NCBI GenBank assembly: GCA_958413985.1
Contig: CATYVZ010000006.1
Location: 2,072-66,071 of the forward strand
Direction of reading: 5' to 3'
Source: an uncultured Bacilli bacterium
Lineage (GTDB): Bacteria > Bacillota_I > Bacilli_A > RF39 > UBA660
DNA length: 64,000 bases
In this document: in pieces, positions 7,136 to 28,133 of the stretch
How positions within the stretch are numbered: the first letter of the stretch is position 1
Layout of the letters: every line of letters starts with the position of its first letter
Notes under the pieces: generated by a model
What the model saw: the letters and a program-made list of their open reading frames with translations, nothing else
What the model was told of the DNA's origin: nothing
Database searches by the model: none
Translations under genes and position numbers: made by a program

Positions 7136-8157
7136 TTCTGTTGATGTTCAGCATAACTTAAAGAATAATAAGTTTTAGTAGAATTACTGTCAAAAACATT
7201 TGCTAGAAAAAATAGATAGTTGTTTTCTTCAGGATAAATAACTGCTTTAATGCTTGCTTCTCCTGGTAATCCACCAGGACCGACTGGTAAACCATAGTAT
7301 TTGTAAGTATTATATGGCGAATCAACCGCTAAATCTGCGCTAGTGTAAGTTAATTTCCACTCGTTTATAGCATAACCGATAGTAGCACAGCTTTCTAATT
7401 TTATTCCTCTATTAAGACGATTGTAAAACACTTGGGCAATCATTGGGCGATCTTCATCTAAAATCGCCTCATGTTCGACGATCGAAGCTAAGGTTAGAAT
7501 TTCATGAACAGTATAGTCACTACTTTCGATTTCATTTTTGTACTTAGTTAAAATTTCATTCATTTTATCTAACATTTTATAAGTTATTTCTTCGATTGTG
7601 CTAGTAGGATAAATTTCATAAGTTGCGGGAAAGAAATATCCTTCTAAGTTATATCTTAAATTATCATTTTTAACTTCGTTGGTAATAAACCAATATTTAT
7701 CGATTAATTTATCGATTACTTCCTCATTTTGCCAGTAGTCTAACAACTCGTCAGTAGTATGATCTGTGACTTCGCTTATATAAATAGCTACGTCAGTAAT
7801 ATGTTTACCTTCGGGAATTACGAAGGAAGTAGTTTCTGTTTTTCCACCTTTTTCTAATGTCTCAATTATTTTTTTGACCCCCATATTTTCGTTTAAAACA
7901 TAAGTACCTTTTTCTAAATTTTCTGGATTAAATATTTTAACATAGATTTTGTAAAATAATTCTGATCTAATTAGATTATTTTCTTTTAACAAAGGAGCTA
8001 ATGAAAGATATGTGGTATTTTCTTGGACTTCGAATACTACTTCTTTACTTTCTTTGCTAACTGCTCCTATTCCATAGTTATAAGATAAACAACCGACTAT
8101 TATTATTACAGCTAAAATGACGATAGCAAACTTATAAATATTAACATACTTCTTCAT
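7105..8157 (-). CDS. mltG: endolytic murein transglycosylase MltG (YceG-like)
   Basis: N-terminal TM and a YceG domain, in the conserved ruvX-DUF1292-mltG context. Confidence 0.85.
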   Translation of the reverse strand: MKKYVNIYKFAIVILAVIIIVGCLSYNYGIGAVSKESKEVVFEVQENTTYLSLAPLLKENNLIRSELFYKIYVKIFNPENLEKGTYVLNENMGVKKIIETLEKGGKTETTSFVIPEGKHITDVAIYISEVTDHTTDELLDYWQNEEVIDKLIDKYWFITNEVKNDNLRYNLEGYFFPATYEIYPTSTIEEITYKMLDKMNEILTKYKNEIESSDYTVHEILTLASIVEHEAILDEDRPMIAQVFYNRLNRGIKLESCATIGYAINEWKLTYTSADLAVDSPYNTYKYYGLPVGPGGLPGEASIKAVIYPEENNYLFFLANVFDSNSTKTYYSLSYAEHQQKCLEYLGYSC

Positions 8158-10541: not shown

Positions 10542-11159
10542 TACACAAATTAAAGTCTCTATATATGTCATAATCAAAAGTTGAGGATTACTTATTTGAA
10601 TAGAAATCGCTATACCACCGATAATTAAAAATATAAAAACAGGTATATATTTTTTATTTTTAAGTTTATTAATATTTGTTACCAACATAAATAATATAAC
10701 AATAATTGCTAAAGCCGAAATAAGATAAGTAAAATAAACACTCGCTCCAGTTGTATATCTTATTTTGAAATCATTCTCAATAATTATATTGATAGGTAAA
10801 ATAGATAAAATAATACCTACAATTATATAATATATAATAAATATAACATATCTATTCTTCTTAATTTCTAAATCATTATTTATGATACTATAAATATAAT
10901 AAGCAAATGTAGAAATCCATAGAATTATATAAAACAGATAAATTTTATAAATAATTACACTAATTAAAGGATGGTCAAAATAAATAAAAGAAGCATAAGT
11001 GCATAATAATTCTATTATCAATCCTACAAAATTAGAAATTATCAAAACACTGAATATTTGTGTCTCTTTACTATTTATATGTCCCTTAACATAAAACAAA
11101 ATTATAACTAACAAACTAAAAGGTACTGCACATAAAGGAAAAAATATTCCACTTCCCAT
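9228..11159 (-). CDS. Hybrid sensor histidine kinase, copy 1. It has a multi-TM sensor domain, HisKA, HATPase_c and a C-terminal receiver (REC) domain.
   Basis: H-box SHEIRTPLNAIVG, G-boxes (GTGLGLAI) and a REC domain (ILIVDDN...LILMDIMMP). The likely start is the second Met at 11159, which has a GGAGG RBS; the track start at 11177 has none. The C-terminal ~437 aa are identical to copy 2. Confidence 0.85.
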   Translation of the reverse strand: MGSGIFFPLCAVPFSLLVIILFYVKGHINSKETQIFSVLIISNFVGLIIELLCTYASFIYFDHPLISVIIYKIYLFYIILWISTFAYYIYSIINNDLEIKKNRYVIFIIYYIIVGIILSILPINIIIENDFKIRYTTGASVYFTYLISALAIIVILFMLVTNINKLKNKKYIPVFIFLIIGGIAISIQISNPQLLIMTYIETLICVIMYFTIENPDVKMLQQMTLAKDLAEKANRAKSDFLSSMSHEIRTPLNAIVGLSEDIVSYKDQVPNEVALDATDIQNASQTLLEIVGNILDINKIESEKMEIINTPYNLKKEIVSLCKVTTSRIKEKPIEFKLDIAEDLPEELIGDRIHIKQVINNLLSNAIKYTEKGMITLGIKCINEKDICKLIISVKDTGKGIKAENINKLFTKFERLDVEMNSTTEGTGLGLAITKSLVEMMGGKINVQSQYGKGSIFVVYLPQKISNQKRENIDINELSNENKKDLSGKKILIVDDNKLNIKVAIKALQDFNFEIEECYDGIECIEKVKEKEYDLILMDIMMPNMSGERALAKLKENKEFKTPVIALTADAVSGAREKYIKEGFVDYISKPFNKEQVKEKIENIFIKKEEVNTPQKVTYVYDSRTKEEYIIKDGQRNDLDNQL

Positions 11160-11187
11160 ATCATAACCTCCATACATCTATTTTGAT

Positions 11188-11202
11188 GTAATTATACCAC
11201 AC
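11188..11202 (-). promoter_or_regulatory. TRTG-extended -10 promoter for kinase copy 1 (TGTGgTATAAT), with no obvious -35
   Basis: Minus strand reads ttttttttGTGTGGTATAATtacatc, about 25 nt upstream of the first ATG. Confidence 0.4.
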
Positions 11203-11219
11203 AAAAAAAAGAATAGCAA

Positions 11220-12986
11220 TTATATACTATTCTTCAATTTTAATACTTTTGAGGCATTTATTTTTTCAACTGCATCATTTTCTAAATAGTCATAGTCAAT
11301 TTTTTCTGTACCCTTTTTTCTAGGAATCTCTGAAACAAATTCAATATAAGTAGGTATTTCATAGCGTTTTAATTGTTCTACTTGTCCATTGGCAGTTATT
11401 ATCGGTTTATTAAACTGTTCTTTAATTTCTTCTAAAACTTGATCTGATTGTTCTACTCCATCATTTAAAACAATATACGCCTTATTAACATATAAAGAAT
11501 CTTTAGCTGGAACTTTAACAACAGCACATTCACTCACTTTATCAAAATAAGAAATAATGTTTTGAACACGATCACAATATACTTTATTTAATGTAGAAAT
11601 TATATAAAATCTTGACTGTCTTCCTGTTAAGGTAAAATAACCTTGACGATCAATGAAACCTAAAGTACCAGTTTTAAAGTATATTTTTCCATCTTTTTCA
11701 AATTTAGCTTCTTTAGTTAATTCTGGCTGTTTATAATATTCCTTAAAAACATGTTTACCACAAACACATAATAATCCTTCTTCGTTGTATTTTTTTTCTT
11801 CCATTGTATCAGGATCAACTATAATTGCCTCGGTTCCAACAAGAATCTTGCCAGCTGTTTCCGGTCTTATTTCGATTCCTGTTGGATTAGTTCCACAACT
11901 TACCGTTTCAGCATTTCCTGAACCATTACCTATTTCTACGTTCTTAGCTCCATGATTTTCAAAAAAGTCTTTACCTCTCTTATAATGATTTGGAGTCAAA
12001 AAATCTCCTCCAGAAATAAATGTAGTAATAGATGATAGATCTTGATCTTTAGGTGTATAACGCATAATTAATTCTAATAATGCTGGACTTCCAAAGATAA
12101 TATTAGGCTTTTTCTTCAAATAATAACAAATAGTATCTTTGGAAATATTAGGAGCAAGAATTGCTGTTTTTTTACTCAATAAAGTCATAATTGTTGATGT
12201 GGCAAAACCATAAGGATAAGAAAATGGTACGCATACGAGTGTTCTATCACCATTTAAAGATTTAATGTGACTAGAATTTTTTAAATATACTCCTGCCGCC
12301 AAAACATTTTCATTAGTTAAAACAACCGATTTTGGTTTACCTGTTGTACCACTGGTAAATAATATCAAAGCGTCATCTTTCCCAGAGTTATTTGCCAAAC
12401 CTTTGCTCTGATATTTAGAAATACTTCCTAAACTATTAAAGTCGATCTTACTGTCATCACTAGTAATATGATAATCTTCATTTAATGATAATGTATTTGT
12501 TTTTTGTTTATCTAAAGTAATAATATATTTAACATTTGTTTTATTTTTTATATTAATATTTTCTTCTTTACTTTTATCATAGTTAATGAAAACAGGTGAT
12601 TCGAATAAATTAAGATAATCACAAATTTCATCTACTTGTGCATTAATATCTAAAAATGTCATCACCGCACCAATTCGATTACAAGCTAAAAATGCTGCTA
12701 CCGCCTGATAATAATTGGGCATACACACTGAAATAATATCGTTTTTTTTGACACCTAATTCTTTTAAAGCTTTGGAAATAGTTATAGCATCTTTAAATAG
12801 TTGATCATAACTTACTGTTAGATCAAGACAATCAATAGCATCTTTTCCTTTATAAAATGAATTTATTAATTTAATAGAATTGTAAATACTCATATTAGGT
12901 ATAATTGGATTTTTAGCAAAAATTGAATAACCTTTATTCTGTGGTTTATCAAAACTAGGATAGTCTTTAAAGTTTTCTTCCTTCAT
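11220..12986 (-). CDS. adenylate-forming enzyme, copy 1 (AMP-dependent synthetase/ligase, acyl-CoA-ligase-like)
   Basis: A3/core motif LFTSGTTGKPKSV, a YGxTE-like motif and a C-terminal domain. Strong GGAAGGGGGA RBS. Confidence 0.8.
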   Translation of the reverse strand: MKEENFKDYPSFDKPQNKGYSIFAKNPIIPNMSIYNSIKLINSFYKGKDAIDCLDLTVSYDQLFKDAITISKALKELGVKKNDIISVCMPNYYQAVAAFLACNRIGAVMTFLDINAQVDEICDYLNLFESPVFINYDKSKEENINIKNKTNVKYIITLDKQKTNTLSLNEDYHITSDDSKIDFNSLGSISKYQSKGLANNSGKDDALILFTSGTTGKPKSVVLTNENVLAAGVYLKNSSHIKSLNGDRTLVCVPFSYPYGFATSTIMTLLSKKTAILAPNISKDTICYYLKKKPNIIFGSPALLELIMRYTPKDQDLSSITTFISGGDFLTPNHYKRGKDFFENHGAKNVEIGNGSGNAETVSCGTNPTGIEIRPETAGKILVGTEAIIVDPDTMEEKKYNEEGLLCVCGKHVFKEYYKQPELTKEAKFEKDGKIYFKTGTLGFIDRQGYFTLTGRQSRFYIISTLNKVYCDRVQNIISYFDKVSECAVVKVPAKDSLYVNKAYIVLNDGVEQSDQVLEEIKEQFNKPIITANGQVEQLKRYEIPTYIEFVSEIPRKKGTEKIDYDYLENDAVEKINASKVLKLKNSI

Positions 12987-13511: not shown

Positions 13512-14028
13512 TTACAAATCAAATTCGTAAATATTTTCTATGATTTTCAATCCACCAACATTTCCATCTTCACTATCGATTATTTTTCCACCTAATGCCG
13601 TGTAAAAATTTTCAGATGGACTTCCTTTTAAACATCTAACTATTATATTTTTATATCCCATATTTTTTAACAAATCAAAACATTCTGTAATTAATTTTTT
13701 ACCAATTCCTTTTCTTTGATTTTCTTTTTCTATATATATTGAATAAACTTCACCCATATCTACATAATCATTTCCACGTCCTTTACCATAGCAAGCAAAA
13801 CCCAATATGTCATTATCTTCTTCATAAACAATATAATGATATTCATTATCTTTTTTTATAGCTTCTTTTATATTATTATTTCTTTGTTCAAAATTTTTCT
13901 CTTGATTTATAAATATTTCTTCAGGAAAAAACTCACTATAAGTTGTCTTCCATGAATTTATATGTATTCTAGTTATTTTTTTTATGTGTTTATAGGTAAT
14001 CTTTGAAATACTTTTACATTTTTTCCAT
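13512..14028 (-). CDS. GNAT family N-acetyltransferase whose 5' end is disrupted by a +1 frameshift in an A6 tract. This could be a pseudogene, a slippage site or a sequencing error.
   Basis: The GNAT body frame is open from 14033 down to 13512 (...ITRIHINSWKTTYSEFFPEE...YHYIVYEEDNDILGFACYG...QRKGIGKKL...) with no in-frame start. An ATG at 14028 is followed by ATGGAAAAAATGTAA. Removing one A from the tract (14019..14024) fuses the ATG in frame, giving MEKCKSISKITYKHI... A TRTG-extended -10 (TGTGgCATAAT) lies at 14070..14081. Confidence 0.5.
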
Positions 14029-14170: not shown

Positions 14171-14887
14171 TCATATATTTAGAATACTTTTAACTTCTTT
14201 TGCAGCTTGACAAATCAATTTAGTGCCATTTGACAAACATATTTTTCCATGACCAGATAAAACTATATCAGCTTTATATTTTGTTAACTTTATTATACTA
14301 TTAACAATTGCTTCTTTATTAAAAGCTGGATCCCCTTCCCAACCAAATAAAAATTTATTTAAGAAGACGCCATCTGCTTCCAATGTGTCACCGGTAAACA
14401 AAACAAATTCACCATCAACTTTTGCCCTAATAGCCATTCCTCCATTTGTATGCCCTGGTATCATAATAAATTCAAATACAATACCATTGATAATCATTTC
14501 TTGATCTACAAATATTTCTACATCAGGAATAAACGCAGGAAATGATTGTTCTATGTCATCTGATGTTCCTTTTGGACCGCCTTGTTTACAATAATTTGTA
14601 TCACCTGCCCCTACTATTATCTTTGCACCTGTCATTTGTAATTCTTTAGCACCGCCACAGTGATCATGGTGTCCATGAGTAAGAATAACATGCGTTATAG
14701 GCGAATTAATATTAAATTTTTTTAACGTTTTTCTTATTATAGCAGGACCGTTTAAAGCCTCTCCGCAATCTATTAATATTAATCCTTGATCTGTATTTAT
14801 ACCATATACTTCGCCTAATGTCCCTTTATTATTTTCAGCAGCAAAGCAGCTACCACTTAAATAAAATAAATTATTTGAAATTATCAA
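14171..14887 (-). CDS. MBL-fold metallo-hydrolase
   Basis: HxHxDH motif (THGHHDHCGG) with the downstream His and Asp ligands. TTG start with a GGAGG RBS. Confidence 0.75.
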   Translation of the reverse strand: MIISNNLFYLSGSCFAAENNKGTLGEVYGINTDQGLILIDCGEALNGPAIIRKTLKKFNINSPITHVILTHGHHDHCGGAKELQMTGAKIIVGAGDTNYCKQGGPKGTSDDIEQSFPAFIPDVEIFVDQEMIINGIVFEFIMIPGHTNGGMAIRAKVDGEFVLFTGDTLEADGVFLNKFLFGWEGDPAFNKEAIVNSIIKLTKYKADIVLSGHGKICLSNGTKLICQAAKEVKSILNI

Positions 14888-14915: not shown

Positions 14916-15623
14916 TTAATCAGCAATATCTACTGTTTCATCATCATTTGAAATAAGTTCAATATTTCCTTTACAAATTCTATAACATTTCCCATAAATT
15001 TTATTATTAAATACATATGATTTATCAGGAAGTCCATAAATAATTCTATTATTTGATTCTTTTATTATTGCATCCATTTGAATCTTGTTAGGATTATCAC
15101 AATCAAAATGCGGCTCAACATTAATTGTAGTTAAATCAAGTCCTTCTAATATAGTAGGGTTAGTTAAATCTTTTTCATTTTCAGGACTACTAAATACAAT
15201 TTTTGCACTATTTATTGAACCAGCACTTATGCCAACAATACACGCATCAGTTTTTTTTATATATTTTTTAAGATTTATGTTATTAAAAAACTTGTTTTGT
15301 TGAAATGCATTACCACCACTAAGAAAAATAAGTGAACTATTATTAAGTACATTATCAATATCTTCTTTATTACGATTATCAAGTACAACATTTTCCTTGA
15401 AGTGAAGCCCAGATAACGCTAGGACTTTCATATCTAATTTTAGATACTCATCATTTTGTTCATAATTATCAGGATCGCTCGCAATAATAACAAATTTATT
15501 ATAATTATTTATATTTTCCTTCATATTTTTTAAAAAATTATTATCTTCAAAAAATTTTACTGGTATTTTTTTACCATTTTCTTTTTTTATCCCCCCAATA
15601 TTACTAGCTAAAAATAATTTCAT
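14916..15623 (-). CDS. S51 family peptidase (peptidase E/cyanophycinase-like; Asp-Xaa dipeptidase fold)
   Basis: LSGGN and GISAGS nucleophile-elbow motifs, plus conserved His and Glu. Strong AAGGAGGA RBS. Confidence 0.65.
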   Translation of the reverse strand: MKLFLASNIGGIKKENGKKIPVKFFEDNNFLKNMKENINNYNKFVIIASDPDNYEQNDEYLKLDMKVLALSGLHFKENVVLDNRNKEDIDNVLNNSSLIFLSGGNAFQQNKFFNNINLKKYIKKTDACIVGISAGSINSAKIVFSSPENEKDLTNPTILEGLDLTTINVEPHFDCDNPNKIQMDAIIKESNNRIIYGLPDKSYVFNNKIYGKCYRICKGNIELISNDDETVDIAD

Positions 15624-15633
15624 TTTATCCTCC

Positions 15634-16656
15634 TTATTTATTAATGTTATACAATAAACTATTTTCTATATTTTTTTGTAAAGTTAACACTTTGTAAAAC
15701 TCATCTTTTTTTTGTTCAAAACTAGAATGATATTCCGCACCCAAATAATTTATAATTAAATTAACTACATCTTCATTAGGATATTGTAATTGCTCATTCC
15801 AATAATTTAATACACGTAAATATTGCCTAAATTTCATTCTTAAATGCTTGGATGAATGATTAGTAACATCTTCTTTTAATAAAATTGCTACAGCTACTAA
15901 TGCATCAGCAAATTTTTCTTTCATAATAGAATCTATATCAAGAAAATCTGCTATTCTTGAGCTGGATACTGTTGAACTTGTACCAAATTTACACATTGAT
16001 AAAGCTAAGTTACTGATTCCCATATCGACAGCTAACTTTCTTTCATTATTTTCCATAACAACAAAAGAAGCAAAATTCAAAAACTCGTTTGTACCTTTTT
16101 TTTTAAGTCCTATATTAAAATCCCTTCCAAAAATATTTTTTTCATCCATACCATATCGATGTCTATAATGTTCAATACTTGATTGATCAACTAAACGAGT
16201 TATTTTACTATCAACATTTTCAGTAGCCTTTATTAAATCCTCATCCGTAGAACTTACCCTTATACAAAGATTTTCAGGAGAGATATGCAAATATTTTTCA
16301 TCAGTTAAATAATCAAAAGTATCTTTAACAATTCTTTCTAGTTCTGGTTTTGCTATTATTCCCATTCCTCTATAATAACAGCCAAATTTTTGCGGTACAT
16401 TTGTTTGTAAATATTTAAATGATTTAAATTTCATACACTCTTGCACGATATATCTTCCAACATCACCGTAATTTTCAGTCTCTAAGTATTTTTTTAATGG
16501 TGAAATATTAGAACCAATAAAGTCAACCGTTGGATCAATTTTTGAAGTAACATTAACTGCAAGTTCTTCAATGTATCCTTTCTCATTAAAACAAACTTTA
16601 AATTTTTCTTCTATAAAATCTAAATATTCGCTTTTGCTAATTTTTTTATCACTCAT
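15634..16656 (-). CDS. stand-alone paralog of the alanyl-tRNA synthetase catalytic core (class II aaRS-like, AlaRS N-terminal domain only)
   Basis: 340 aa that align by eye to the first ~250 aa of the alaS in this window. DPTVDFIGSNISPLKKYL matches DPSVLFNTAGMQPLIPYL, QECMKF matches QKCIRT, ISPENLCIRVS matches IPVERLAVTVF, and AVDMGISNLALS matches the motif-3 region NVDTGMGYERV. The tRNA-recognition and editing domains are absent. Confidence 0.55.
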   Translation of the reverse strand: MSDKKISKSEYLDFIEEKFKVCFNEKGYIEELAVNVTSKIDPTVDFIGSNISPLKKYLETENYGDVGRYIVQECMKFKSFKYLQTNVPQKFGCYYRGMGIIAKPELERIVKDTFDYLTDEKYLHISPENLCIRVSSTDEDLIKATENVDSKITRLVDQSSIEHYRHRYGMDEKNIFGRDFNIGLKKKGTNEFLNFASFVVMENNERKLAVDMGISNLALSMCKFGTSSTVSSSRIADFLDIDSIMKEKFADALVAVAILLKEDVTNHSSKHLRMKFRQYLRVLNYWNEQLQYPNEDVVNLIINYLGAEYHSSFEQKKDEFYKVLTLQKNIENSLLYNINK

Positions 16657-16661
16657 TTATA

Positions 16662-18506
16662 TCACTCTACTTCTTTTTTATCGTTAGACATTTTTAATAG
16701 TTCTCCTAAATAATAACTAATATTAGATTCAGTTACACTATTATTAATACTACCTTTATACGAATCAAGTTTTAAAAAACTATCAATTTCTTTTCCCAAT
16801 TGTTTAACAGTTTCTTTATACATTTGTGTATTAAATCTAGGAGTACATATTAATATACTTTTTGTAAGATTTATTTTATGTTTTTTAATTAATTCAACTG
16901 TTTTAGCCACTGATTCATTAGTATCCCCCATCATACCAAGCATAAAGAAACCATTATAATTAATTCCTGCTTTTTTGATTGCATATAGGGCTTTTAATAA
17001 TTGTTCATTAGAATAATTCTTGTTATTAATTTTACGAACATTTTCATCAAAACTTTCAATTCCTAACCAAATTAATTGGCAACCTGCTTTTTTCATAACA
17101 ACAAGAGTATCATAATCTATTGAATTTATACAAATCTGACATTGCCATTTGATTTGAATATTAGCCTTTATCATTTCTTTACATAAATTTTTTGCGTAAT
17201 TTTTATCAAGTATGAAATTCTGATCTAAGAAAAATATTTCTGTTATTCCACGTTTTTGTATTTCTTTTAATTCAGCTACTACTGATTCTATTTTTCTAAA
17301 ACGAACACTTTTGGCAAAAAAGTTGTAACAAAAAGCACAATTAAATGGACACCCTCTACTTGCCTGAACAATACTCCAGTGCAATTTTCTTACTGGCATA
17401 TTGTCATGATACCTATAACCAAAATAACAATCTAAATGAATCAAATCATAATTAGGTATATATTTACACCATTCAGTTGGATGTTGTTCATTCAAATCTT
17501 CTCTTGTTTTAATTAATTTTTTATTCTTTTTATAAATAATATTGGGAAGATTTTCAATTGGAAGATTTTGATCCATATCCCTAATTATATTAGCAAGCTG
17601 GATATCAAATTCGCCTTTTAATATATAATCTGGGTTACAATCTTTAAAGACGATATCTGGTCTCACAGTACCATGTCCTCCGCATACAATAATTGGTATA
17701 TTATTAAACTTATTTTTGATAGTTTTTACATATTTTGTAAAAACTACATAACGATAATCAACAAAATAATTATGTACTTGATCAACTGTTGAAGAACAAA
17801 TGACTATTCCTTTTTTGTAATCACGTATAATATTAAGTAAATCAGTTAATGAATAATTATAAATTCGATTATCAAGAATATCAACATCTATAAAAAAATT
17901 ATTTTTTAAATAAGTTGCACAATTCATTAAAGCTAAAGGCGGTTGAACAAAAGTTGTTCCATTTAAAAATTCTGGTATTAAGAATATGTATTTCCCTTTT
18001 TTCTTGAATTTTTTACTCATATCATTATTTAAACTTGTAATTGCATCAGTTAAATAATCTGGGGCTTCTTTAGTAATTTCTTCTATTTTCTTTTTACTTA
18101 TATCAAGTTGTTTTGGGCTATAAACACGATGCGTATTTTTTATAAAGTATAATATAGCAACAAGTTTTCTGGGTTTCATATCCTCGATAGCAAAAATTGC
18201 ATCAAATATTTCATTCTGTAAAGATTTTGTAGTATACTTATAAATTATTGATGATAATTCAATGATCTGTGCTATAAAATTTGATTGTTTTTTAATGCTA
18301 CTAACAACTTTTCTAACATATTCTCTTTTTTCCACTAAAGTTGCCTGTTTTAAAAAATATGTACGCATAATAAGCAATAAATTAATTTGTTCTGATTCAC
18401 TAAATTTATCAATTTTTTTTATAGTTTCATCATAAATTTCTTTTTGTTTCTTATTATTATATGTATTTATTCTTTTTATTTTTAATAATAATGTTTCTTT
18501 ATCCAC
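16662..18506 (-). CDS. B12-binding-domain radical SAM enzyme (class B radical SAM) with an unassigned ~170-aa N-terminal domain
   Basis: CxxxCxxC (RGCPFNCAFCYN), a preceding Rossmann-like B12-binding region (...IPIIVCGGHGT...), and a GTG start with an AGGAGA RBS. It lies 17 nt downstream of the preceding gene. Confidence 0.75.
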   Translation of the reverse strand: MDKETLLLKIKRINTYNNKKQKEIYDETIKKIDKFSESEQINLLLIMRTYFLKQATLVEKREYVRKVVSSIKKQSNFIAQIIELSSIIYKYTTKSLQNEIFDAIFAIEDMKPRKLVAILYFIKNTHRVYSPKQLDISKKKIEEITKEAPDYLTDAITSLNNDMSKKFKKKGKYIFLIPEFLNGTTFVQPPLALMNCATYLKNNFFIDVDILDNRIYNYSLTDLLNIIRDYKKGIVICSSTVDQVHNYFVDYRYVVFTKYVKTIKNKFNNIPIIVCGGHGTVRPDIVFKDCNPDYILKGEFDIQLANIIRDMDQNLPIENLPNIIYKKNKKLIKTREDLNEQHPTEWCKYIPNYDLIHLDCYFGYRYHDNMPVRKLHWSIVQASRGCPFNCAFCYNFFAKSVRFRKIESVVAELKEIQKRGITEIFFLDQNFILDKNYAKNLCKEMIKANIQIKWQCQICINSIDYDTLVVMKKAGCQLIWLGIESFDENVRKINNKNYSNEQLLKALYAIKKAGINYNGFFMLGMMGDTNESVAKTVELIKKHKINLTKSILICTPRFNTQMYKETVKQLGKEIDSFLKLDSYKGSINNSVTESNISYYLGELLKMSNDKKEVE

Positions 18507-18523
18507 AATTCATGTCTCCTATA

Positions 18524-20707
18524 TTATTTTTTAAAATCAGTTTCACTAATTTTACTTTCAACTATTTTAAACTTTTTATTTTCATATACTATTTTACAAT
18601 AATCAATATCAATATATTGTTCACCATCAATTGCTGACTTCAAATTACTCATTGTTGCTCCATGAGTAATGATTGCAAACTTCTTATAAGAACTATTAAC
18701 TAAATATTTTTCTAAAAAATACATTAATCTTTCCCTAACATGATTAATACTTTCACCATCAGCTACAACTTTATTATAATTAACAATTGCCTCTTTACCT
18801 TCTTGACTATTTAAAAAATCAGAAAGTGGTTTACCTTGAAATTTTCCCACATTCCAAGCTCTTAACTCTTTATGAAAAGATACTGGTATTTTAAAACCAT
18901 TATTAGCTAGTTCAACGGTTCTTCTAGTCCTAATAAGATCTGATGAATAAATATATTCAATTTCATTTTTCTTTAATTCTAAAGCAATTTTATTAATTTG
19001 CTCTAATCCTTTATCAGTAAATTTCAAAGATGCATCTTCAAATGTTCCTCTAATTTTATTTTCAACATTCCAATTAGTTTCACCATGTCTAAAAATATAA
19101 ATTTCTTTTTTGTCATTTTTTTTACTATTCTTCTCTTCTAACTTTTTCATTGGAGATAATCTATCTCTTAATCTGAAATCCATATTTTTATTATCGTTAA
19201 CAAAATCTTCTATTTTATTTATTTTTTTATCTGGAAAAAACATATTATAATATGCAATTGCTGTTTGAACATCTTGTTCTGACATTTCAAAGTGTCCTAG
19301 TTTAACTAACCCTAAGAAATCTTTATACTTATCCCTATCTAGTTGTTCACTTAATTCTTGATTTAATATTGAAGTATTAGAATTTAGATAATATTTTTTT
19401 ATAACATTTTTAGGTGATTTTATTAATTTTTGCATACTAACAGGCATGTTTTCTATTAATTTTTCATTTACAAGCCCTTGCTTTATGTAATCTTGTAATA
19501 TTCTAATATAAGCATAAAGCCTTATTTTTGCATCAGCAAAAAGGATTGCACTTGCATAATCTCTAATACCATTAGCTTTCATTAACGTAACTGTTTTAGG
19601 TGATATTTCTAATACAATTTTTTCTCTATATTTTGAACCATTATCAATATATGCTCTTGTAATTAAATTTGTCAATGTATGATTTAATGATGTTTCGTAA
19701 TTATCTTCATAGATATTTAATTGATCATCTTGAATACTATTTTGCCATGTACTAATGTTGCCATTATATTCTACAAGCCAATCTAATCCAAATCCACCAT
19801 CAGAATTATATACACGTGACGGAAAATAATTTTGTGATTCATCTAAATCTATGTCATACAGTTCTACCATTTTCATAAATGATTCATTATTATGTAGATT
19901 TGGTCTAAATGATGGATAAAATACCCTTGATATTCCAATTATTATTTCAAAACCAGAATCGAGTATTAATTTTGATTTCCAAGGCATTATCTTAATAATT
20001 TTATCATCATCAGATTTATTAGGTTGAAACTTTTCAATTTTATATTTTCTCCCAATTGTTTTTAGATTATTTTCTAATGTTGAATCTTCTTTAAATGTTT
20101 TTATTTGTAAAGTAAAGTTTTTATTATATCTATATTTAGATTCAAATATATTAATTAAGTTTTCTAACGGAAGATGTTTTAATTTAATACTATGATATTG
20201 ACTAACACTTAATCTAATAGAGATACGTGCTTTCTTTTTTCTTTTTTTGATAGCTTGATATATTTCATCTAAATATTTTTCCGCTCTTTCTTTATTATAT
20301 GCCCATAGACCACCAGTAACTAAAACTATCCTATCAGCGTTTATTTTTTCAATACTTTTTAATAGTGCTTCTTTTTCTAAAAAAGGCTCTCCGCCACCAG
20401 ATATTTGTAAATAACCAACATTTGCTTTATTAGCAAAATCAATAAATTTATCAACACCTTCAGGAGTAAATTGATTCTTAATATTCTTTTTACTAGCTGA
20501 CGATAAAGCTTTAAAACAGCAGAAAGGACAGCCAACATCACACACTGATGTAAACATAACCAATACCAATGATTTTCCTGCATATTTTTTCTTATCAATT
20601 TTTAATAAACCTTCTTGTTTATTAATTGAATCTATATACATTTCTGGATAATTAAATATATTTTCTATATTACAATCAATATTTTTTATTTCTTCTTTTT
20701 TCACCAT
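18524..20707 (-). CDS. fusion protein: N-terminal radical SAM domain, a central domain of unknown function, and a C-terminal histidine phosphatase (phosphoglycerate-mutase-like) domain
   Basis: CDVGCPFCC radical-SAM cysteine triad with a QISGGGEP SAM-binding motif. The C-terminus has IYIFRHGETNWN (RHG catalytic motif) and ...IITHGATM... typical of the His_Phos_1 superfamily. Confidence 0.75.
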   Translation of the reverse strand: MVKKEEIKNIDCNIENIFNYPEMYIDSINKQEGLLKIDKKKYAGKSLVLVMFTSVCDVGCPFCCFKALSSASKKNIKNQFTPEGVDKFIDFANKANVGYLQISGGGEPFLEKEALLKSIEKINADRIVLVTGGLWAYNKERAEKYLDEIYQAIKKRKKKARISIRLSVSQYHSIKLKHLPLENLINIFESKYRYNKNFTLQIKTFKEDSTLENNLKTIGRKYKIEKFQPNKSDDDKIIKIMPWKSKLILDSGFEIIIGISRVFYPSFRPNLHNNESFMKMVELYDIDLDESQNYFPSRVYNSDGGFGLDWLVEYNGNISTWQNSIQDDQLNIYEDNYETSLNHTLTNLITRAYIDNGSKYREKIVLEISPKTVTLMKANGIRDYASAILFADAKIRLYAYIRILQDYIKQGLVNEKLIENMPVSMQKLIKSPKNVIKKYYLNSNTSILNQELSEQLDRDKYKDFLGLVKLGHFEMSEQDVQTAIAYYNMFFPDKKINKIEDFVNDNKNMDFRLRDRLSPMKKLEEKNSKKNDKKEIYIFRHGETNWNVENKIRGTFEDASLKFTDKGLEQINKIALELKKNEIEYIYSSDLIRTRRTVELANNGFKIPVSFHKELRAWNVGKFQGKPLSDFLNSQEGKEAIVNYNKVVADGESINHVRERLMYFLEKYLVNSSYKKFAIITHGATMSNLKSAIDGEQYIDIDYCKIVYENKKFKIVESKISETDFKK

Positions 20708-20761: not shown

Positions 20762-22201
20762 CTATCTTTTATTAAATTCTTTTATCTTTCTTTTTGCATA
20801 AGTGGTCTGTGCTTTATTTATCCAATCTTCTCTTGGCCCAAATGATAAATCATCAGTAACTATTCTAACTCTATCTTTATTTTGTAATACATAATCTACT
20901 GGTACATATTCATCATTTACAAACACTCCAACCATTGTGTTTCCTATATCTGTATGAATTTTATAGGCAAAATCTATCGCTGTCGCCCCTTTGGGAAGCT
21001 CTATAATATCTCCTTTAGTTGTATAAACATATACTCTATCAGCAAATAATTCACTTTTTACTTGATTTATAAATTGTTGATTATCTCCAAACATAGAATT
21101 TATTTCTGTTAACGATTTAAAAAATTGAAATTTTTCTTTTAGATTCTCTTGCATCACATCTCTTGCTTTTCCTTTTTGTTCATCCCAATATGCCGTTAAA
21201 CCAAACGATGCTACTTTGTCCATATCGAAAGTTCTAATTTGAGTTTGAACTAATCTATCATCAGGACCAAACACTGTCGTATGTAAACTTCTATACATAT
21301 TTGTTTTTGGATTACATATATAATCTTTAAATTTATCATTTATTGGATGATATTCTTGATGAATCAAACCTAATGTTAAGTAACAATTTTCTATTTCATC
21401 AACCATTATTTTTAAAGCAAGCAAATCATGAATATCTGATAATTTATGACCTTCATTTAATCTTTTGTATATACCATATATATTTTTAGTTCTTACTTTT
21501 ATTTCATTAGGTATATTCCTATTTTTTAATAATGTTTCTATTTTATATAGCATTTCCTTAAGACAGTTTTTACTTGTTTCTTCAATCTTTGTTTTTCTTT
21601 CTTCAATTTTTTTATACATGTCTGGTTTAAGATATTGTAAAGATAAATCTTCTAGTTCTGACTTTATTCTATATGCTCCGATATAATATGCAAGTGGTAC
21701 AAATATTTCCATCGTTTCAAGGGCATTTTCTTTTTGCTTAAATTCTGATTTAAACTCTAATGTTCTCATATTATGAAGTCTATCGGCAAGTTTTATTATA
21801 ATTATTCTTACATCTTCTGTTATTCCTGTTATTATCTTTCGAGTATTTGCTAAATTTTGATCTTGTTTCGAAGAAAAATTCATTTTAGATAGTTTTGTTA
21901 CTCCATCTACTAAATTAGCAATATTTTGGTTAAAATCATGGGCAATATCTTCTTTAGTAATATTAGTATCTTCTAAAGTATCATGTAAAAGACCTGCACA
22001 TACTGTATCTTTATCAGCATGCATGTCAGATAAAATATATGCAACATTCAAAGGATGACTTATATATGGTTCACCACTTTGTCTCATTTGTCCTTTATGC
22101 AAAGCATCTGCATATTCATAAGCCTTTTTTACAATTCCTATCTCATCTGGATTATATTCTTCTAGTTTATTTAATAAATCTTGTAACACAATATTATTCA
22201 T
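20762..22201 (-). CDS. RelA/SpoT homolog (long RSH; HD hydrolase + synthetase + TGS) that lacks the C-terminal helical/ACT(RRM) region. The true start is at 22201.
   Basis: HD motif LLHDTLEDT, synthetase motifs (IHDLLALKIMV; RSLHTTVFGPDDRLVQTQIRTFDMDKVASFGLTAYW) and a TGS domain (VYVYTTKGDIIELPKGATAIDFAYKIHTDIG). The ATG at 22201 has a GGAGGTG RBS. The 24-codon upstream extension in the ORF track lacks one. Confidence 0.8.
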   Translation of the reverse strand: MNNIVLQDLLNKLEEYNPDEIGIVKKAYEYADALHKGQMRQSGEPYISHPLNVAYILSDMHADKDTVCAGLLHDTLEDTNITKEDIAHDFNQNIANLVDGVTKLSKMNFSSKQDQNLANTRKIITGITEDVRIIIIKLADRLHNMRTLEFKSEFKQKENALETMEIFVPLAYYIGAYRIKSELEDLSLQYLKPDMYKKIEERKTKIEETSKNCLKEMLYKIETLLKNRNIPNEIKVRTKNIYGIYKRLNEGHKLSDIHDLLALKIMVDEIENCYLTLGLIHQEYHPINDKFKDYICNPKTNMYRSLHTTVFGPDDRLVQTQIRTFDMDKVASFGLTAYWDEQKGKARDVMQENLKEKFQFFKSLTEINSMFGDNQQFINQVKSELFADRVYVYTTKGDIIELPKGATAIDFAYKIHTDIGNTMVGVFVNDEYVPVDYVLQNKDRVRIVTDDLSFGPREDWINKAQTTYAKRKIKEFNKR

Positions 22202-22250
22202 CAAAACACCTCCGAATAGAAAAATAATCGGTGCTAAAAACACATAATGT

Positions 22251-22388
22251 TTAACTAGCACCGATATTATCATATTTGTTATTTAAAGCAGAATAGAAAC
22301 ATGAACAAATAATGTCAGTAAAATATTGATTTCTAACACTTAATTCTTTTACATAATCAATGATTAATTCATCAATTAGTTTTATCAT
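22251..22388 (-). CDS. small protein (45 aa), first gene of the operon
   Basis: MIKLIDELIIDYVKELSVRNQYFTDIICSCFYSALNNKYDNIGAS. It has a very strong RBS (GAGGGGGAA + 6 nt + ATG) directly downstream of the operon promoter. Confidence 0.45.
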   Translation of the reverse strand: MIKLIDELIIDYVKELSVRNQYFTDIICSCFYSALNNKYDNIGAS

Positions 22389-24461: not shown

Positions 24462-26180
24462 TTATTTTTTTAGTGCCAATACTTTAGCTCTTTCTTCTGT
24501 TATAGTTTCACTATCTATTTGAGATAAATCTTTAGACTGATAATAAGATATATCAACCTTTGAGTTACTCATTCTTTTTAACGGCTCATAAGAATATTCA
24601 ATATATCCTGGTAACCAATTTTCACTTAAATTCTTTTTAACAAAAGATTTTAATTTCTTTTCGAATTGTTCTATATTTAAATTCTTATCATATAACGAAA
24701 TGTGATAGCTAGGAATAAATTGTCTAATTTCATCAGGCACACCAGTTACTAGTACTTCTCTAACTTGAGGAAAAGACATAATCAAGTTTTCTAATTCCTC
24801 AGGATAAATATTTTCAATACCAGAGACAAAATTTCTTTTTTGTCTTCCTACATATTTGTATTCACCAGTTTCTGTATTTTGAATATAGTCCCCTAGATTA
24901 CACCATTTTTTTCCATGTTCATCGTAAGAAATCACTTTTTTTGTTTCGTCAGGATTATTAAAGTAACCTAGCATTACAGATGGACCAGATACATAAAGCA
25001 ATCCTTTTTCACCATTATTGACTTCTTTTTTTGTTTCTGGGTCAACTAATTTAATTTCTAAACACGATAAAGCTTGACCAATCGTTCCGGGCGTGTGTTT
25101 TTTACCATTATTAATCATAATAGATGACCAAGTTTCCGTAGCGCCTAATCCATCACCTAATACTGCATCACTTCCACATAACTTTAATGCTTCATTAATA
25201 GCTTTTTCGGTTGTCGCTTTTTTAGCTTCCCCACCTGATGTAGCATAATGCAAATGAGATAATGAATCTTGTTTCAATCTACTGCTTGGAACGAAGTCAT
25301 CTCCTTTTTTTTCGATCAATGAAACCCAATGCGGTGGACCACCTACTGCTGCATTTGCTTTAGTCCTTACTAATTCATCATAAAAATCTTCTGGCTTAGC
25401 TTTCAATGTTAAAGCTAATTCCATGTTATTGCATAATGAATAATGCATAATCATTCTACCATAAACCATATGGCCGATTGGAATATTACCTAAATGGATC
25501 ATGCCCGGCTCAGCATCAAAAATGCCGTTCATACTTGCTACAACATGATTTAAGCCTTTTCCAGATAATTCTACACCTTTGTGAATCCCAGTCGAACCAC
25601 CAGTGAACATTACATCAGTAACCTCATCATCTATATAGATACCTTTTTTAAAGTCAGTACCATCATCCTTTTTAATAATCGAATTTAAATTTGAATTTCT
25701 TGACAATTTAAAATTACCTTTTTTTAATTGTAAAATTTTATATCCTAATTTTAATTTCATATCATTTACAGATTCTAATGGTGAATAAAGTATAGTCGAA
25801 AAATTTAAAGCCTTTTCATATTCCTTAAAATTACTATAACTCATATCGACAGAAATAATCATTTTCGGATGCGTTAATTCGATATCTTTTCCTACTTTTA
25901 TTTTATTATCGATAGGGCTTATACCTACCACTTCTGCACCTAATAAATCTAAAGCATATAACAAAAACACAGATTCAGGAGTATTTAAAGCGCAGACACC
26001 TATCATATCTCCTTGTCTAATTCCTCTTTGATATAATATTTTTGCATATTTATTTATCCTATCATGTAATTCTTCATAAGATATTTTTCTATCAAAAAAA
26101 GTTAATGCTGTATAATTCATATACTTGTCGTTATTGTTCAACAAAAAATTATACTTTCTATCATTTGGATTTGCCACCAT
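24462..26180 (-). CDS. adenylate-forming enzyme, copy 2 (AMP-binding superfamily), diverged from copy 1
   Basis: MFTGGSTGIHKGV P-loop-like adenylation motif. AAAGGGGGAAAA RBS. A TRTG-extended -10 (TGTGtTATAAT) lies at 26231..26247. Confidence 0.75.
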   Translation of the reverse strand: MVANPNDRKYNFLLNNNDKYMNYTALTFFDRKISYEELHDRINKYAKILYQRGIRQGDMIGVCALNTPESVFLLYALDLLGAEVVGISPIDNKIKVGKDIELTHPKMIISVDMSYSNFKEYEKALNFSTILYSPLESVNDMKLKLGYKILQLKKGNFKLSRNSNLNSIIKKDDGTDFKKGIYIDDEVTDVMFTGGSTGIHKGVELSGKGLNHVVASMNGIFDAEPGMIHLGNIPIGHMVYGRMIMHYSLCNNMELALTLKAKPEDFYDELVRTKANAAVGGPPHWVSLIEKKGDDFVPSSRLKQDSLSHLHYATSGGEAKKATTEKAINEALKLCGSDAVLGDGLGATETWSSIMINNGKKHTPGTIGQALSCLEIKLVDPETKKEVNNGEKGLLYVSGPSVMLGYFNNPDETKKVISYDEHGKKWCNLGDYIQNTETGEYKYVGRQKRNFVSGIENIYPEELENLIMSFPQVREVLVTGVPDEIRQFIPSYHISLYDKNLNIEQFEKKLKSFVKKNLSENWLPGYIEYSYEPLKRMSNSKVDISYYQSKDLSQIDSETITEERAKVLALKK

Positions 26181-26372: not shown

Positions 26373-28133
26373 CTATTCTAAAATAGCCTTAATTCTTCTA
26401 ACTCCTGCACTACTTGCTTCCTCTTTAACGATCTTAAACTTACCTAATTCACTGGTATTTTTCACATGTGGACCGCCACATAACTCTTTAGAAATATCAC
26501 CAATGCTATAAACAGTTACAATATCTGGATACTTCTCGATAAACATGCATTCAGCTCCAGATTTTATCGCTTCTTCCTTGCCCATTTCTACAACAGTGAC
26601 ATCTAATCCTTCATCGATCCAATCATTGACTAATTGTTCTGTTTTTTGCTTTTCTTCATCAGTTAATTTATGGTCACATGAAAAATCGAAACGCATTCTT
26701 TCACTAGTAATATTACTTCCTTTTTGATGAATATTTTTATCGACGACAATTTTTAAAGCTGCATTTAACAAATGAGTAGCTGTGTGATATTTTATTTCTT
26801 TATCTGAATCACCAGCTAAGCCACCTTTAAATTTACCACTTGAAGCAGTACGTGACAATTCCTGATGAGCTTTAAATTTCTCATTAAAACCTTCGATATC
26901 GACAACAATTCCTTTTTCATTAGCTAGTTCAACTGTCAATTCAATAGGAAAACCATAAGTATCGTATAGTTTAAACGCTAAATCTTTATTTAGTGATTTT
27001 TCTTTTAAATTGTCAGTTATTTTTTCAAACTCTTTTAATCCTTTAGCTAAAGTGCGGTTAAACTTATTTTTTTCATTAGTCAAACCTTCTAAAATGACTT
27101 CTTTATTTTTAGTTAATTCAGAATAGTATTGTGCATATTTATCGATAATCATATTAGCAATGATAACTTCCCAATTACTATTTTCATCAATCTCTAATTT
27201 TTTAGCATGTCGAATCGCACGTCTAATCAATCTTCTTAAAATATAACCTTGATCTGTATTAGAAGGTTTAATGCCAGCTTCATCACCTAATATAAAGACA
27301 GCCGTTCTGATATGGTCAGCAATTATTCTTATACTATTAGGATTTTCTTCATATGTATATTTTGCTAATTGTTCGATCTTTTTAACAATATCTATCCATA
27401 CACTTGATAGATAGTTGTCAGTAACACCTTCTAAAACAGCAACAACTCTTTCATATCCCATCCCAGTATCGACATTTTTTTGTGGTAGTTCAGTAATGTG
27501 ACCATCGTTATCTTTATAAAACTCCATAAATACATTATTCCATATTTCGACCCAACGTTCATCGTTTGGATCAAATTTAGCTGGTATTTCATCATTGCTT
27601 CGAAAATAAAATATTTCTGTATCTGGTCCGCAGGGCCCAGAATCGCCAGCAATCCAAAAATTATCTTCTTTTCCTAAATAGGCAATATGTTGATCACTTA
27701 TTCCTAAACTTTTCCAAATGTCAGCAGAGACATCATCTTTAGGAATATTGCCTTCACCTTTAAAAACTGTTACCGCTAATCTTTCGACAGGTATTTTTAA
27801 AATCTTAGTTAAAAATTCAAAACTATATCCAATACTTTCTTTTTTAAAGTAATCTCCTAATGACCAATTACCCAACATCTCAAAAAAAGTATGGTGTGTC
27901 ATATCGCCAACGCTGTCTAAATCGTTAGTTCGAATACATTTTTGATAGTCGACTAATCTTGTTCCATATGGATGTGGTCGTCCCATTAAATAAGGAATCA
28001 ACGGTTGCATTCCCGCTGTATTAAATAAAACGGAAGGATCATTTTCAGGAACCACCGGAGCTGAAGGGATCTGTTTGTGCCCTTTACTTATAAAAAAATC
28101 AATATATAAATCTTTAAGATTCATCTTTACCAC
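26373..28133 (-). CDS. alaS: alanyl-tRNA synthetase, short form (586 aa; catalytic, tRNA-recognition and editing domains, no C-Ala domain)
   Basis: N-terminus ...NDPSVLFNTAGMQP...HHTFFEMLGNWSLGDYFK..., editing-domain end ...HTATHLL...CGGPHV. Confidence 0.85.
   Translation of the reverse strand: MVKMNLKDLYIDFFISKGHKQIPSAPVVPENDPSVLFNTAGMQPLIPYLMGRPHPYGTRLVDYQKCIRTNDLDSVGDMTHHTFFEMLGNWSLGDYFKKESIGYSFEFLTKILKIPVERLAVTVFKGEGNIPKDDVSADIWKSLGISDQHIAYLGKEDNFWIAGDSGPCGPDTEIFYFRSNDEIPAKFDPNDERWVEIWNNVFMEFYKDNDGHITELPQKNVDTGMGYERVVAVLEGVTDNYLSSVWIDIVKKIEQLAKYTYEENPNSIRIIADHIRTAVFILGDEAGIKPSNTDQGYILRRLIRRAIRHAKKLEIDENSNWEVIIANMIIDKYAQYYSELTKNKEVILEGLTNEKNKFNRTLAKGLKEFEKITDNLKEKSLNKDLAFKLYDTYGFPIELTVELANEKGIVVDIEGFNEKFKAHQELSRTASSGKFKGGLAGDSDKEIKYHTATHLLNAALKIVVDKNIHQKGSNITSERMRFDFSCDHKLTDEEKQKTEQLVNDWIDEGLDVTVVEMGKEEAIKSGAECMFIEKYPDIVTVYSIGDISKELCGGPHVKNTSELGKFKIVKEEASSAGVRRIKAILE

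Follow-up and report, generated by a model that had tools for sequence, protein, structure and literature searches.

A radical SAM domain fused to a histidine phosphatase in an uncultured Bacilli bacterium: a conserved protein family with a candidate role in nucleotide modification

What is a radical S-adenosylmethionine (SAM) enzyme doing on the same polypeptide chain as a histidine phosphatase? The question is raised by a gene in a 64,000-nucleotide (nt) stretch of DNA from an uncultured Bacilli bacterium (contig CATYVZ010000006.1 of assembly GCA_958413985.1), which was analysed as a whole and is referred to here as the window. A reading of the DNA letters by themselves (the original prediction) located the interval correctly and described one polypeptide with an N-terminal radical SAM domain and a C-terminal histidine-phosphatase domain; it did not notice that the gene lies on the minus strand, and it missed three partner genes, for an alanyl-tRNA synthetase (AlaRS)-like protein, an S51 peptidase and a B12-binding radical SAM protein. 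As argued below, the fusion protein is very probably a real bifunctional enzyme of a conserved family, with both domains predicted to be catalytically competent. The wider explanation that we favour, and to which we give even chances, is that the gene belongs to a mobile cassette that would modify a nucleotide by radical chemistry, dephosphorylate it and then aminoacylate the product reversibly.

The reading frame is intact. The identical protein of 727 amino acids (aa) is encoded on four contigs (the three displayed come from different sequencing runs), and among the matches to a search of 5.8 billion protein clusters, ~65 homologues share the fusion over their full length (40-100% identity), ~25 relatives of 510-540 aa are without the phosphatase, and in one relative of 951 aa (P0060; numbers with P and L denote individual family proteins and loci) a Peptidase_S51 domain is fused in addition to the radical SAM-phosphatase. 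The identical open reading frame (ORF) in independent assemblies and the persistence of the fusion down to 40% identity exclude a frameshift joining two genes, the obvious worry with such a prediction, as well as an artefact of assembly. Both domains are recognized by Pfam: His_Phos_1 (PF00300; E=6e-29, 101.5 bits for a cut-off of 21.7) and Fer4_12 (PF13353; residues 44-150, E=6e-8, 33.6 bits for a cut-off of 22) score above their thresholds, and Radical_SAM (PF04055; residues 51-147) comes in at 25.7 bits, slightly below its gathering score of 29.5. All the motifs originally quoted are present: C56-x3-C60-x2-C63 sits within 'SVCDVGCPFCCF', and 'SGGGEPF' (residues 103-109), 'IFRHGETNWN' (538-547) and 'IITHG' (678-682) follow. 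The AlphaFold 2 model is confident (pLDDT 90, pTM 0.90) and contains two folded catalytic domains that match known folds; the catalytic motifs are intact, and the two-domain polypeptide stands as it was first described.

The N-terminal part has the GGE-type SAM-binding motif and the partial TIM-barrel fold that define the radical SAM superfamily. C56, C60 and C63 are shared by all 43 aligned homologues, and no further conserved cysteine is found in that alignment; with only the three SAM-cluster cysteines conserved, the protein is taken to have no auxiliary cluster. The structures closest to the barrel are the peptide epimerase EpeE/YydG (PDB 8ai1) and then SuiB, ChlB, PqqE and SkfB. EpeE reportedly has an auxiliary Fe-S cluster and acts on a ribosomal peptide. 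The fusion protein differs from it in having the three SAM-cluster cysteines only, in the lack of a conserved precursor peptide gene nearby and in carrying two more domains; membership in the SPASM/twitch (EpeE/YydG-like) group was considered and rejected, the extra conserved auxiliary-cluster cysteines being absent. Viperin and the prokaryotic viperins, MoaA, BlsE and AbmM offer no family-level sequence match, and their accessory domains and gene partners are different.

A middle region of ~270 aa had been set aside as being of unknown function. Part of it is simply the rest of the radical SAM barrel; the remainder is a helical domain of ~190 aa without a Pfam family. It is strongly conserved (R361, K377, R382, D383, R396, R402, H472, R516 and K521 are invariant) and is present in all relatives of the radical SAM core, whether or not these are fused to a phosphatase. 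It may form a substrate-binding lid. The 50 matches listed by a Foldseek search of the PDB are all to the phosphatase, with the helical domain unmatched among them.

In the C-terminal domain R540-H541-G542, R592, E651 and H681 align with the catalytic positions of PhoE and are conserved among the fused members. The domain shares its fold and all catalytic residues with PhoE/YhfR, with CobC (alpha-ribazole-5'-phosphate phosphatase) and with a histidine-family phosphatase of the riboflavin pathway, the last two of which, by name, dephosphorylate small intermediates of cofactor pathways; unlike it, these are stand-alone enzymes of ~200 aa. NCBIfam has no model for the whole fusion protein, and all equivalog matches are far below their cut-offs (for the phosphatase domain GpmB is best, with 74.6 bits for a cut-off of 261, and CobC scores 67.6 for 162.9), which places the phosphatase outside the specific families (GpmB, CobC, PspA, SixA and others). 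Assignment of the protein to a characterized radical SAM or phosphatase subfamily was accordingly rejected.

How widespread is this protein? An exhaustive profile search of 1.84 billion representative sequences found 145 proteins at E<=1e-30 and 279 at E<=1e-10, and the radical SAM family occurs in 58 genomes of a species-level genome collection. Fused homologues are found in gut Bacilli (RF39-like), Clostridia, Alphaproteobacteria, bacteria of the candidate phyla radiation (CPR) and one DPANN archaeon. The window's own clade evidently comprises 'Mycoplasma sp. CAG:611' and other uncultured gut Bacilli (87-88% identity); the other hosts of the family include Clostridium sp. CAG:417, gut Alphaproteobacteria (Enterousia), Patescibacteria, Woesearchaeota, Micrarchaeota, Chlamydiae, Legionellaceae, Paracaedibacteraceae, Verrucomicrobia and a few free-living Proteobacteria. 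With so few matches and so broad a list of hosts, the family is rare and widely scattered. The architecture was originally thought to be undescribed. As far as the searchable literature goes this is correct, since full-text searches found no paper on a radical SAM-histidine phosphatase fusion or on its cassette (two papers, on tunicamycin and on AcmF, are relevant and are taken up below); in public databases, on the other hand, the proteins are present, annotated as 'histidine phosphatase family protein' or '4Fe-4S cluster-binding domain-containing protein'.

A phage or plasmid origin of the family was rejected: a phage collection and IMG/VR gave no matches, and the sole plasmid match is to one remote relative (21% identity) in Rhizobium. 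That relative, a protein of 444 aa that is related to the radical SAM core, lies on a conjugative plasmid (NZ_CP072159 of Rhizobium sp. B230/85, 125420-128613; locus L070) and is followed by two small hypothetical genes and an inositol monophosphatase (IMPase)-family gene, with a Fic protein, a MATE exporter and insertion sequence elements flanking.

The company that the radical SAM core keeps provides the strongest evidence available on its substrate. ORFs were called and clustered in 64 loci, and in most of them a phosphohydrolase accompanies the core. His_Phos is fused to it in 20 loci and encoded by a separate neighbouring gene in three; in one of these (L009) the phosphatase gene overlaps the radical SAM stop codon by 4 nt and its product is 31% identical to the window's phosphatase domain, so that the two arrangements appear to be related by fission or fusion. 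NUDIX is adjacent or fused in ~17 loci (fused in L056). Other fusion partners are adenosine deaminase (L052, L053, L058 and P0169; a separate gene in L051), a dCTP-deaminase/dUTPase-like domain (P0177), a PHP phosphoesterase (P0156), a DUF89/ARMT1 phosphatase (P0206), a class I methyltransferase (P0237) and a SIR2-like (SIR2_2) domain (P0164). Deoxynucleoside kinase (dNK)-like proteins are encoded near the core in eight loci, adenylate kinase in five, and a nucleoside diphosphate (NDP) kinase-like protein together with a major facilitator superfamily (MFS) transporter in L029; an RpiB-NUDIX fusion (L047) is another neighbour, and RmlD-like and GFO/IDH/MocA oxidoreductases are also recurrent neighbours. 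Five classes of phosphohydrolase (four of them fused, the IMPase family adjacent only), nucleotide deaminases of two kinds and a number of nucleotide kinases together point to a phosphorylated substrate of nucleotide type, which we regard as probable. To that extent the sequential chemistry on a phosphorylated, nucleotide-like substrate that was proposed at the outset draws strong support from comparative genomics. Since the base-specific partners vary by lineage (adenosine deaminase in some, dCTP-deaminase-like in another), the site of radical attack would more probably be the sugar than the base.

A second radical SAM protein of methylase type recurs in these loci. In the window and in the CPR locus L023 (Staskawiczbacteria) it is B12-binding. 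In eight others it is RlmN/Cfr-like and lacks the N-terminal domain (TIGR00048, E=3e-72, below the cut-off, with the match starting at model position 70). In P0180 the core is itself fused to a B12-binding radical SAM protein; the fused B12-binding half and its counterpart in the window share only 24% identity, which makes this a link between classes and not orthology.

The radical SAM core is also found inside very long proteins (1,400-6,600 aa: P0164, P0156, P0206, P0212/P0298 and P0213), most of whose length is without a Pfam match; among those scanned the accompanying domains are SIR2_2, PHP, and DUF89 with peptidase M54, and the giant proteins of Omnitrophota (P0212) carry His_Phos_1 and DUF218. 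In Chlamydiae and other loci of the Planctomycetes-Verrucomicrobia-Chlamydiae (PVC) group (L031-L035, L043, L008, L045, L046) the unfused core lies beside two proteins without a family, c3 (~360 aa, often in two copies) and c8 (~275 aa), and is also flanked by a nucleotidyltransferase-like protein of ~200 aa (c12). This looks like a different, equally uncharacterized cassette around the same core.

Two genes are specific partners of the phosphatase-linked radical SAM protein. One, encoding a protein of 320-350 aa without a Pfam family, adjoins the fusion gene in most His_Phos-linked loci (16 of 23, as against one of the 41 others; Fisher p=7e-9), and the other, which codes for an S51 peptidase, accompanies it in 18 of the 23 and occurs in one of the 41 (p=1.6e-10; in L030, the exception, the fusion gene exists as a fragmented copy), the p-values being overstated because the loci are not phylogenetically independent. 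In 12 loci the first gene either overlaps the radical SAM start by 13-16 nt or stops 14-15 nt ahead of it; gene overlap of this kind hints at a complex of the two proteins. The pattern covers Bacilli, Clostridia, Alphaproteobacteria and CPR bacteria, with one archaeon besides for the S51 gene.

The nature of the first partner was disclosed by its fold. A PDB sequence search with the protein by itself found nothing meaningful and a profile search only a weak AlaRS match; the fold search aligned 312 of 340 residues with an AlaRS fragment, and the protein has the fold of the AlaRS aminoacylation domain. In a global profile alignment (hhalign) with the window's own AlaRS, at an alignment probability of 46%, QKCIR becomes QECMK (the motif-2 arginine being replaced by Lys76), FFEMLGN becomes YYRGMGI, and GMGYER becomes GISNLA, leaving the motif-3 arginine without a counterpart. 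D211, which corresponds to the aspartate that binds the amino group of the amino acid in AlaRS (D235), is invariant. The class II ATP-binding arginines have likely been lost, which at this low alignment probability is not proven. The window's 340-aa protein also lacks editing and C-Ala domains and scores 27 bits with the NCBIfam AlaRS model (cut-off 529); with the motif arginines apparently gone as well, a canonical alanyl-tRNA synthetase was rejected. The housekeeping AlaRS of the window (26373-28133, minus strand) is itself a short form of 586 aa that ends directly after the tRNA_SAD domain. In L023 a complete class IIb aminoacyl-tRNA synthetase (Asp/Asn/Lys type, 472 aa, 6598-8016) takes the place of the AlaRS-like gene, between the B12-binding radical SAM and the radical SAM-phosphatase genes; it is directly adjacent in that compact CPR locus only, and could be a coincidence of a compact genome or a dedicated or resistant synthetase copy.

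The S51 assignment of the other partner is firm (PF03575, 57.4 bits for a cut-off of 23.9; the NCBIfam PepE match is weak), and the serine-nucleophile motif GxSAG ('GISAGS') and a downstream 'PHFD' are both in the sequence. In L009 an S66 peptidase occupies its position. The S66 family takes in LD-carboxypeptidases and also MccF, an enzyme of microcin C immunity that acts by cleaving aminoacyl-nucleotides. The exchange of S66 for S51 lends support to a deacylating role on an aminoacylated small molecule.

Starting from the architecture, the intact catalytic motifs, the folds, the conservation of the fusion and the statistics of neighbours and fusions, we infer a substrate, an order of steps, an aminoacyl transfer and a product, as follows. 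The single [4Fe-4S] cluster held by C56, C60 and C63 would cleave SAM reductively to a 5'-deoxyadenosyl radical, which would take a hydrogen from a phosphorylated nucleoside; the likeliest site is the sugar moiety of a nucleotide, with adenine or another base, whose phosphate is probably gripped by the Arg/Lys-rich helical domain. The rearranged or otherwise modified product would then be dephosphorylated in cis by the histidine phosphatase, with H541 as nucleophile and E651 as acid, and the B12-binding protein would add a further step, probably methylation. The AlaRS-like protein would attach an amino acid to the modified nucleoside; the apparent loss of the class II ATP-binding arginines makes aminoacyl-tRNA the probable donor. 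Finally, the S51 peptidase would remove the aminoacyl group for processing, self-protection, activation or recycling.

Parts of this scheme have precedents. In the tunicamycin cluster the radical SAM protein TunB, the histidine phosphatase TunG and the pyrophosphatase TunN are encoded by separate genes (PMC6965331). The parallel is that a radical SAM enzyme acting on a nucleoside-derived substrate is clustered with a phosphoglycerate mutase (PGAM)-type histidine phosphatase and a pyrophosphatase, as the core is here with His_Phos or NUDIX partners; the analogy is one of gene clusters. The tun proteins are separate and small (TunB is of ~337 aa), the helical domain and the covalent phosphatase fusion are additional here, and the glycosyltransferase, acyltransferase and other tun functions are absent. 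In ascamycin biosynthesis AcmF, a truncated AlaRS-like protein no longer able to activate amino acids, transfers alanine from Ala-tRNA to a nucleoside sulfamate, and the hydrolase AcmE takes the alanine off again (PMC12945691, a 2026 review). The AlaRS-like partner resembles AcmF, which was compared by its description only, in retaining no more than the aminoacylation domain and a portion of the tRNA-recognition domain, in apparently lacking the ATP-binding arginines and in being encoded beside a hydrolase and enzymes of nucleoside type. AcmF, in contrast, is an actinomycete enzyme with a reported D232E change where the aspartate equivalent to AlaRS D235 is kept here; its hydrolase partner is an alpha/beta-hydrolase and not S51/S66, and sulfamate-forming genes are absent from the cassette. 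What is precedented, then, is the folds, the pairing of a radical enzyme with a phosphatase in nucleoside tailoring and the AlaRS-like aminoacyl transferase; the radical SAM core family, the helical domain and the cassette as a whole are uncharacterized.

The full aminoacyl-nucleoside scheme is offered as tentative only, and its boldest extension is somewhat unlikely, namely that the cassette makes a new aminoacyl-nucleoside antimetabolite, a 'Trojan horse' inhibitor of aminoacyl-tRNA synthetases, by a new radical SAM reaction on a nucleotide sugar, with aminoacyl-tRNA as donor and the peptidase for self-protection or activation. Several points weigh against the explanation that we favour. The radical SAM core family is without any characterized member, its chemistry being deduced from sequence and models; the co-occurrence with the AlaRS-like and S51 genes is counted over related loci; the loss of the ATP-binding arginines leans on the profile alignment cited above, and with D211 kept, the AlaRS-like protein may still activate amino acids with ATP. 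A search for Rfam riboswitches and T-boxes that might name the ligand found nothing at E<=1 in the 12-27 kb region of the window and only tRNAs in nine related loci. Transporters lie outside the core cassette (the MFS gene being confined to L029), and the hosts of the cassette include CPR and DPANN organisms, whose genomes are very small and in which pathways for secondary metabolites are unusual.

The alternatives divide the same evidence differently. Nucleotide salvage, repair or 'house-cleaning' would convert a scavenged or damaged nucleotide to a usable nucleoside (by deoxygenation or epimerization of the sugar and then dephosphorylation, for example) and serve organisms without de novo nucleotide synthesis; the AlaRS-like protein and the peptidase would then be regulatory or unrelated. 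Concentration of the family in reduced, dependent lineages (CPR, DPANN, Chlamydiae, Legionellaceae, Paracaedibacteraceae, RF39-type Bacilli) is what one would expect of such a function, as are the neighbouring dNK-like, adenylate and NDP kinases, NUDIX proteins, phosphoribosyltransferases, phosphoribosyl pyrophosphate synthase and RpiB, the DUF89 'damage-control' phosphatase fused in P0206 and the Vut_1-family transporter in L009. Yet the family is very rare, as the profile search shows, and patchy within those very lineages; recombinase neighbours and movement across phyla are unlike an essential salvage step, and the tight, overlapping linkage to the AlaRS-like gene and the S51/S66 peptidase is left unexplained. 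On balance we hold salvage to be unlikely. Nucleotide kinases beside a radical SAM gene also recall the neighbourhoods of prokaryotic viperins, and an antiviral or conflict system of that kind would have the radical SAM enzyme make a modified nucleotide, to serve as chain terminator or as signal, its phosphorylation tuned by kinases and phosphatases. The SIR2_2 domain fused in P0164, a LuxR/NB-ARC/TPR (STAND-like) neighbour in type-C loci, the AbiE and HipA genes adjoining L009 and the mobile, patchy distribution all speak for it; PADLOC's defence models have no match for the fusion protein, the AlaRS-like protein or the S51 peptidase. Such a system seems distinctly unlikely.

Could the target be RNA? 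The AlaRS-like protein would bind tRNA or aminoacyl-tRNA, the fusion's radical SAM domain and the RlmN-like or B12 methylase would modify an adenosine, the phosphatase would trim a terminal phosphate and the S51 enzyme would deacylate. The part of the AlaRS tRNA-recognition domain that the partner keeps, the relationship of the second radical SAM protein in eight loci to RlmN/Cfr, which methylates adenine in rRNA and tRNA, and the class IIb synthetase gene adjoining the fusion in L023 would all fit. That RlmN-like protein lacks its N-terminal domain, however, the wider family is tied to enzymes of small-molecule nucleotides (NUDIX, deaminases, kinases), and the nearest phosphatases (PhoE, CobC, the riboflavin-pathway enzyme) act on small phosphomonoesters; a tRNA gene dedicated to the cassette was considered and rejected, the identities of nearby tRNA genes varying between loci. 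An RNA-directed system is less likely again than an antiviral one. The resemblance of the barrel to EpeE and the other enzymes listed above, and the presence of a peptidase, suggest in turn a peptide pathway of the RiPP (ribosomally synthesized and post-translationally modified peptide) or PEARL (peptide aminoacyl-tRNA ligase) kind, in which the radical SAM domain would modify an amino acid appended to a scaffold peptide by the AlaRS-like enzyme and the S51 peptidase would release the product. This is scarcely credible: a search for RiPP precursors found no small ORF near the cassette that is conserved across lineages, the auxiliary-cluster/SPASM set of cysteines is absent, and the phosphatase, NUDIX, deaminase and kinase partners would have no place.

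If radical modification, dephosphorylation and reversible aminoacylation of a nucleotide is what the cassette does, the family defines an unstudied radical SAM reaction on nucleotides, and its repertoire of partners (the phosphohydrolases, both types of deaminase and the methylases) would amount to a versatile nucleoside-tailoring module. The AlaRS-like protein would be the second known case in which a shortened AlaRS has come to aminoacylate small molecules, and would extend that chemistry beyond actinomycetes to Bacilli of human and animal guts and to ultra-small CPR and DPANN organisms, which are not usually seen as producers of specialized nucleosides. A testable route to new nucleoside antimetabolites and to the chemical interactions of episymbiotic microbes would follow. 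On a more conservative reading the fusion still provides a handle for assigning function to a vaguely annotated family.

In the window the fusion gene belongs to a run of six minus-strand genes arranged head to tail with gaps of 5-54 nt (Table 1), an order that is repeated in L037 and L044.

Table 1. Positions in the window of the fusion gene, its domains and the other genes of the run
Feature	Position	Strand	Size	Remarks
Fusion gene, radical SAM/helical domain/histidine phosphatase	18524..20707	-	727 aa	Single uninterrupted ORF of 727 codons
Radical SAM partial TIM-barrel	19718..20620	-	residues ~30-330	C56/C60/C63 at nt 20519-20542; GGGEP SAM-binding motif
Family-specific helical domain	19118..19699	-	residues ~337-530, ~190 aa	No Pfam family
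His_Phos_1 (PGAM-like branch 1) phosphatase domain	18590..19102	-	residues 536-706	R540/H541 at nt 19085-19090; R592, E651, H681
RelA/SpoT homologue	20762..22273	-	503 aa	Pfam and NCBIfam; ends 54 nt upstream of the fusion gene
B12-binding (class B) radical SAM protein	16662..18506	-	614 aa	Pfam Radical_SAM and B12-binding; starts 17 nt downstream of the fusion gene
AlaRS-like class II aminoacyl-tRNA synthetase paralogue, truncated	15634..16656	-	340 aa	Aminoacylation core and part of the tRNA-recognition domain
Peptidase S51 (PepE/cyanophycinase-like) serine hydrolase	14916..15623	-	235 aa	Pfam PF03575, E=2e-15
Metallo-beta-lactamase-fold hydrolase	14171..14887	-	238 aa	Pfam Lactamase_B, E=1e-23; last gene of the run

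The B12-binding radical SAM protein is a probable methylase-type partner of the fusion protein. Its best NCBIfam match, far below the cut-off, is to the PhpK family (PhpK-type P-methyltransferases); its gene keeps its place in L037 and L044, with the counterpart in L023 already mentioned. It carries an N-terminal extension of ~180 aa without a match, and its host, a gut Bacilli bacterium of the reduced type, presumably depends on imported cobamide. The two outermost genes of the run are treated as peripheral to the cassette. That for the metallo-beta-lactamase-fold hydrolase is limited to the window, L037 and L044. The RelA/SpoT gene also adjoins the fusion in L037 and L044 and is divergently oriented in the CPR locus L010; it may be co-transcribed with the fusion gene, and any link in function is uncertain. 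Its presence was judged to be a weak pointer to a substrate of (p)ppGpp type, the two genes being adjacent in two lineages only, once divergently. The homologue ends soon after its TGS domain (the family model has 687 positions). A promoter-like site at 22448-22421 is weak in such AT-rich DNA, and a promoter and terminator scan was uninformative (88 sites in DNA of 26% GC, with 96 expected, and no terminators).

Several features speak for mobility of the cassette. The GC content is slightly lower in the cassette region (25-26%, ~12-24 kb) than in the flanks (29-32%); in eight gut-Bacilli loci (among them L014, at 11062-12714, L018, L021 and L036) the gene directly downstream of S51 encodes a large serine recombinase with Resolvase, Recombinase and Zn_ribbon_recom domains, which suggests that the cassette borders on an integrative element or forms part of one; and the spread of the family is patchy across phyla and domains, with identities of ~48% between phyla and to an archaeon. 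The low GC, the recombinases and this level of identity across phyla and to an archaeon mark the cassette as an accessory, horizontally transferred unit. Paralogous AMP-binding (acyl-CoA-synthetase-like) genes (11220-12986 and 24462-26180, both on the minus strand) bracket the low-GC region. Beyond the last gene of the run, and separated from it by a gap of 365 nt, a 97-aa GNAT ORF with a TTG start (13512-13805, minus strand) matches only positions 46-115 of the acetyltransferase profile and is probably a truncated gene or a pseudogene.

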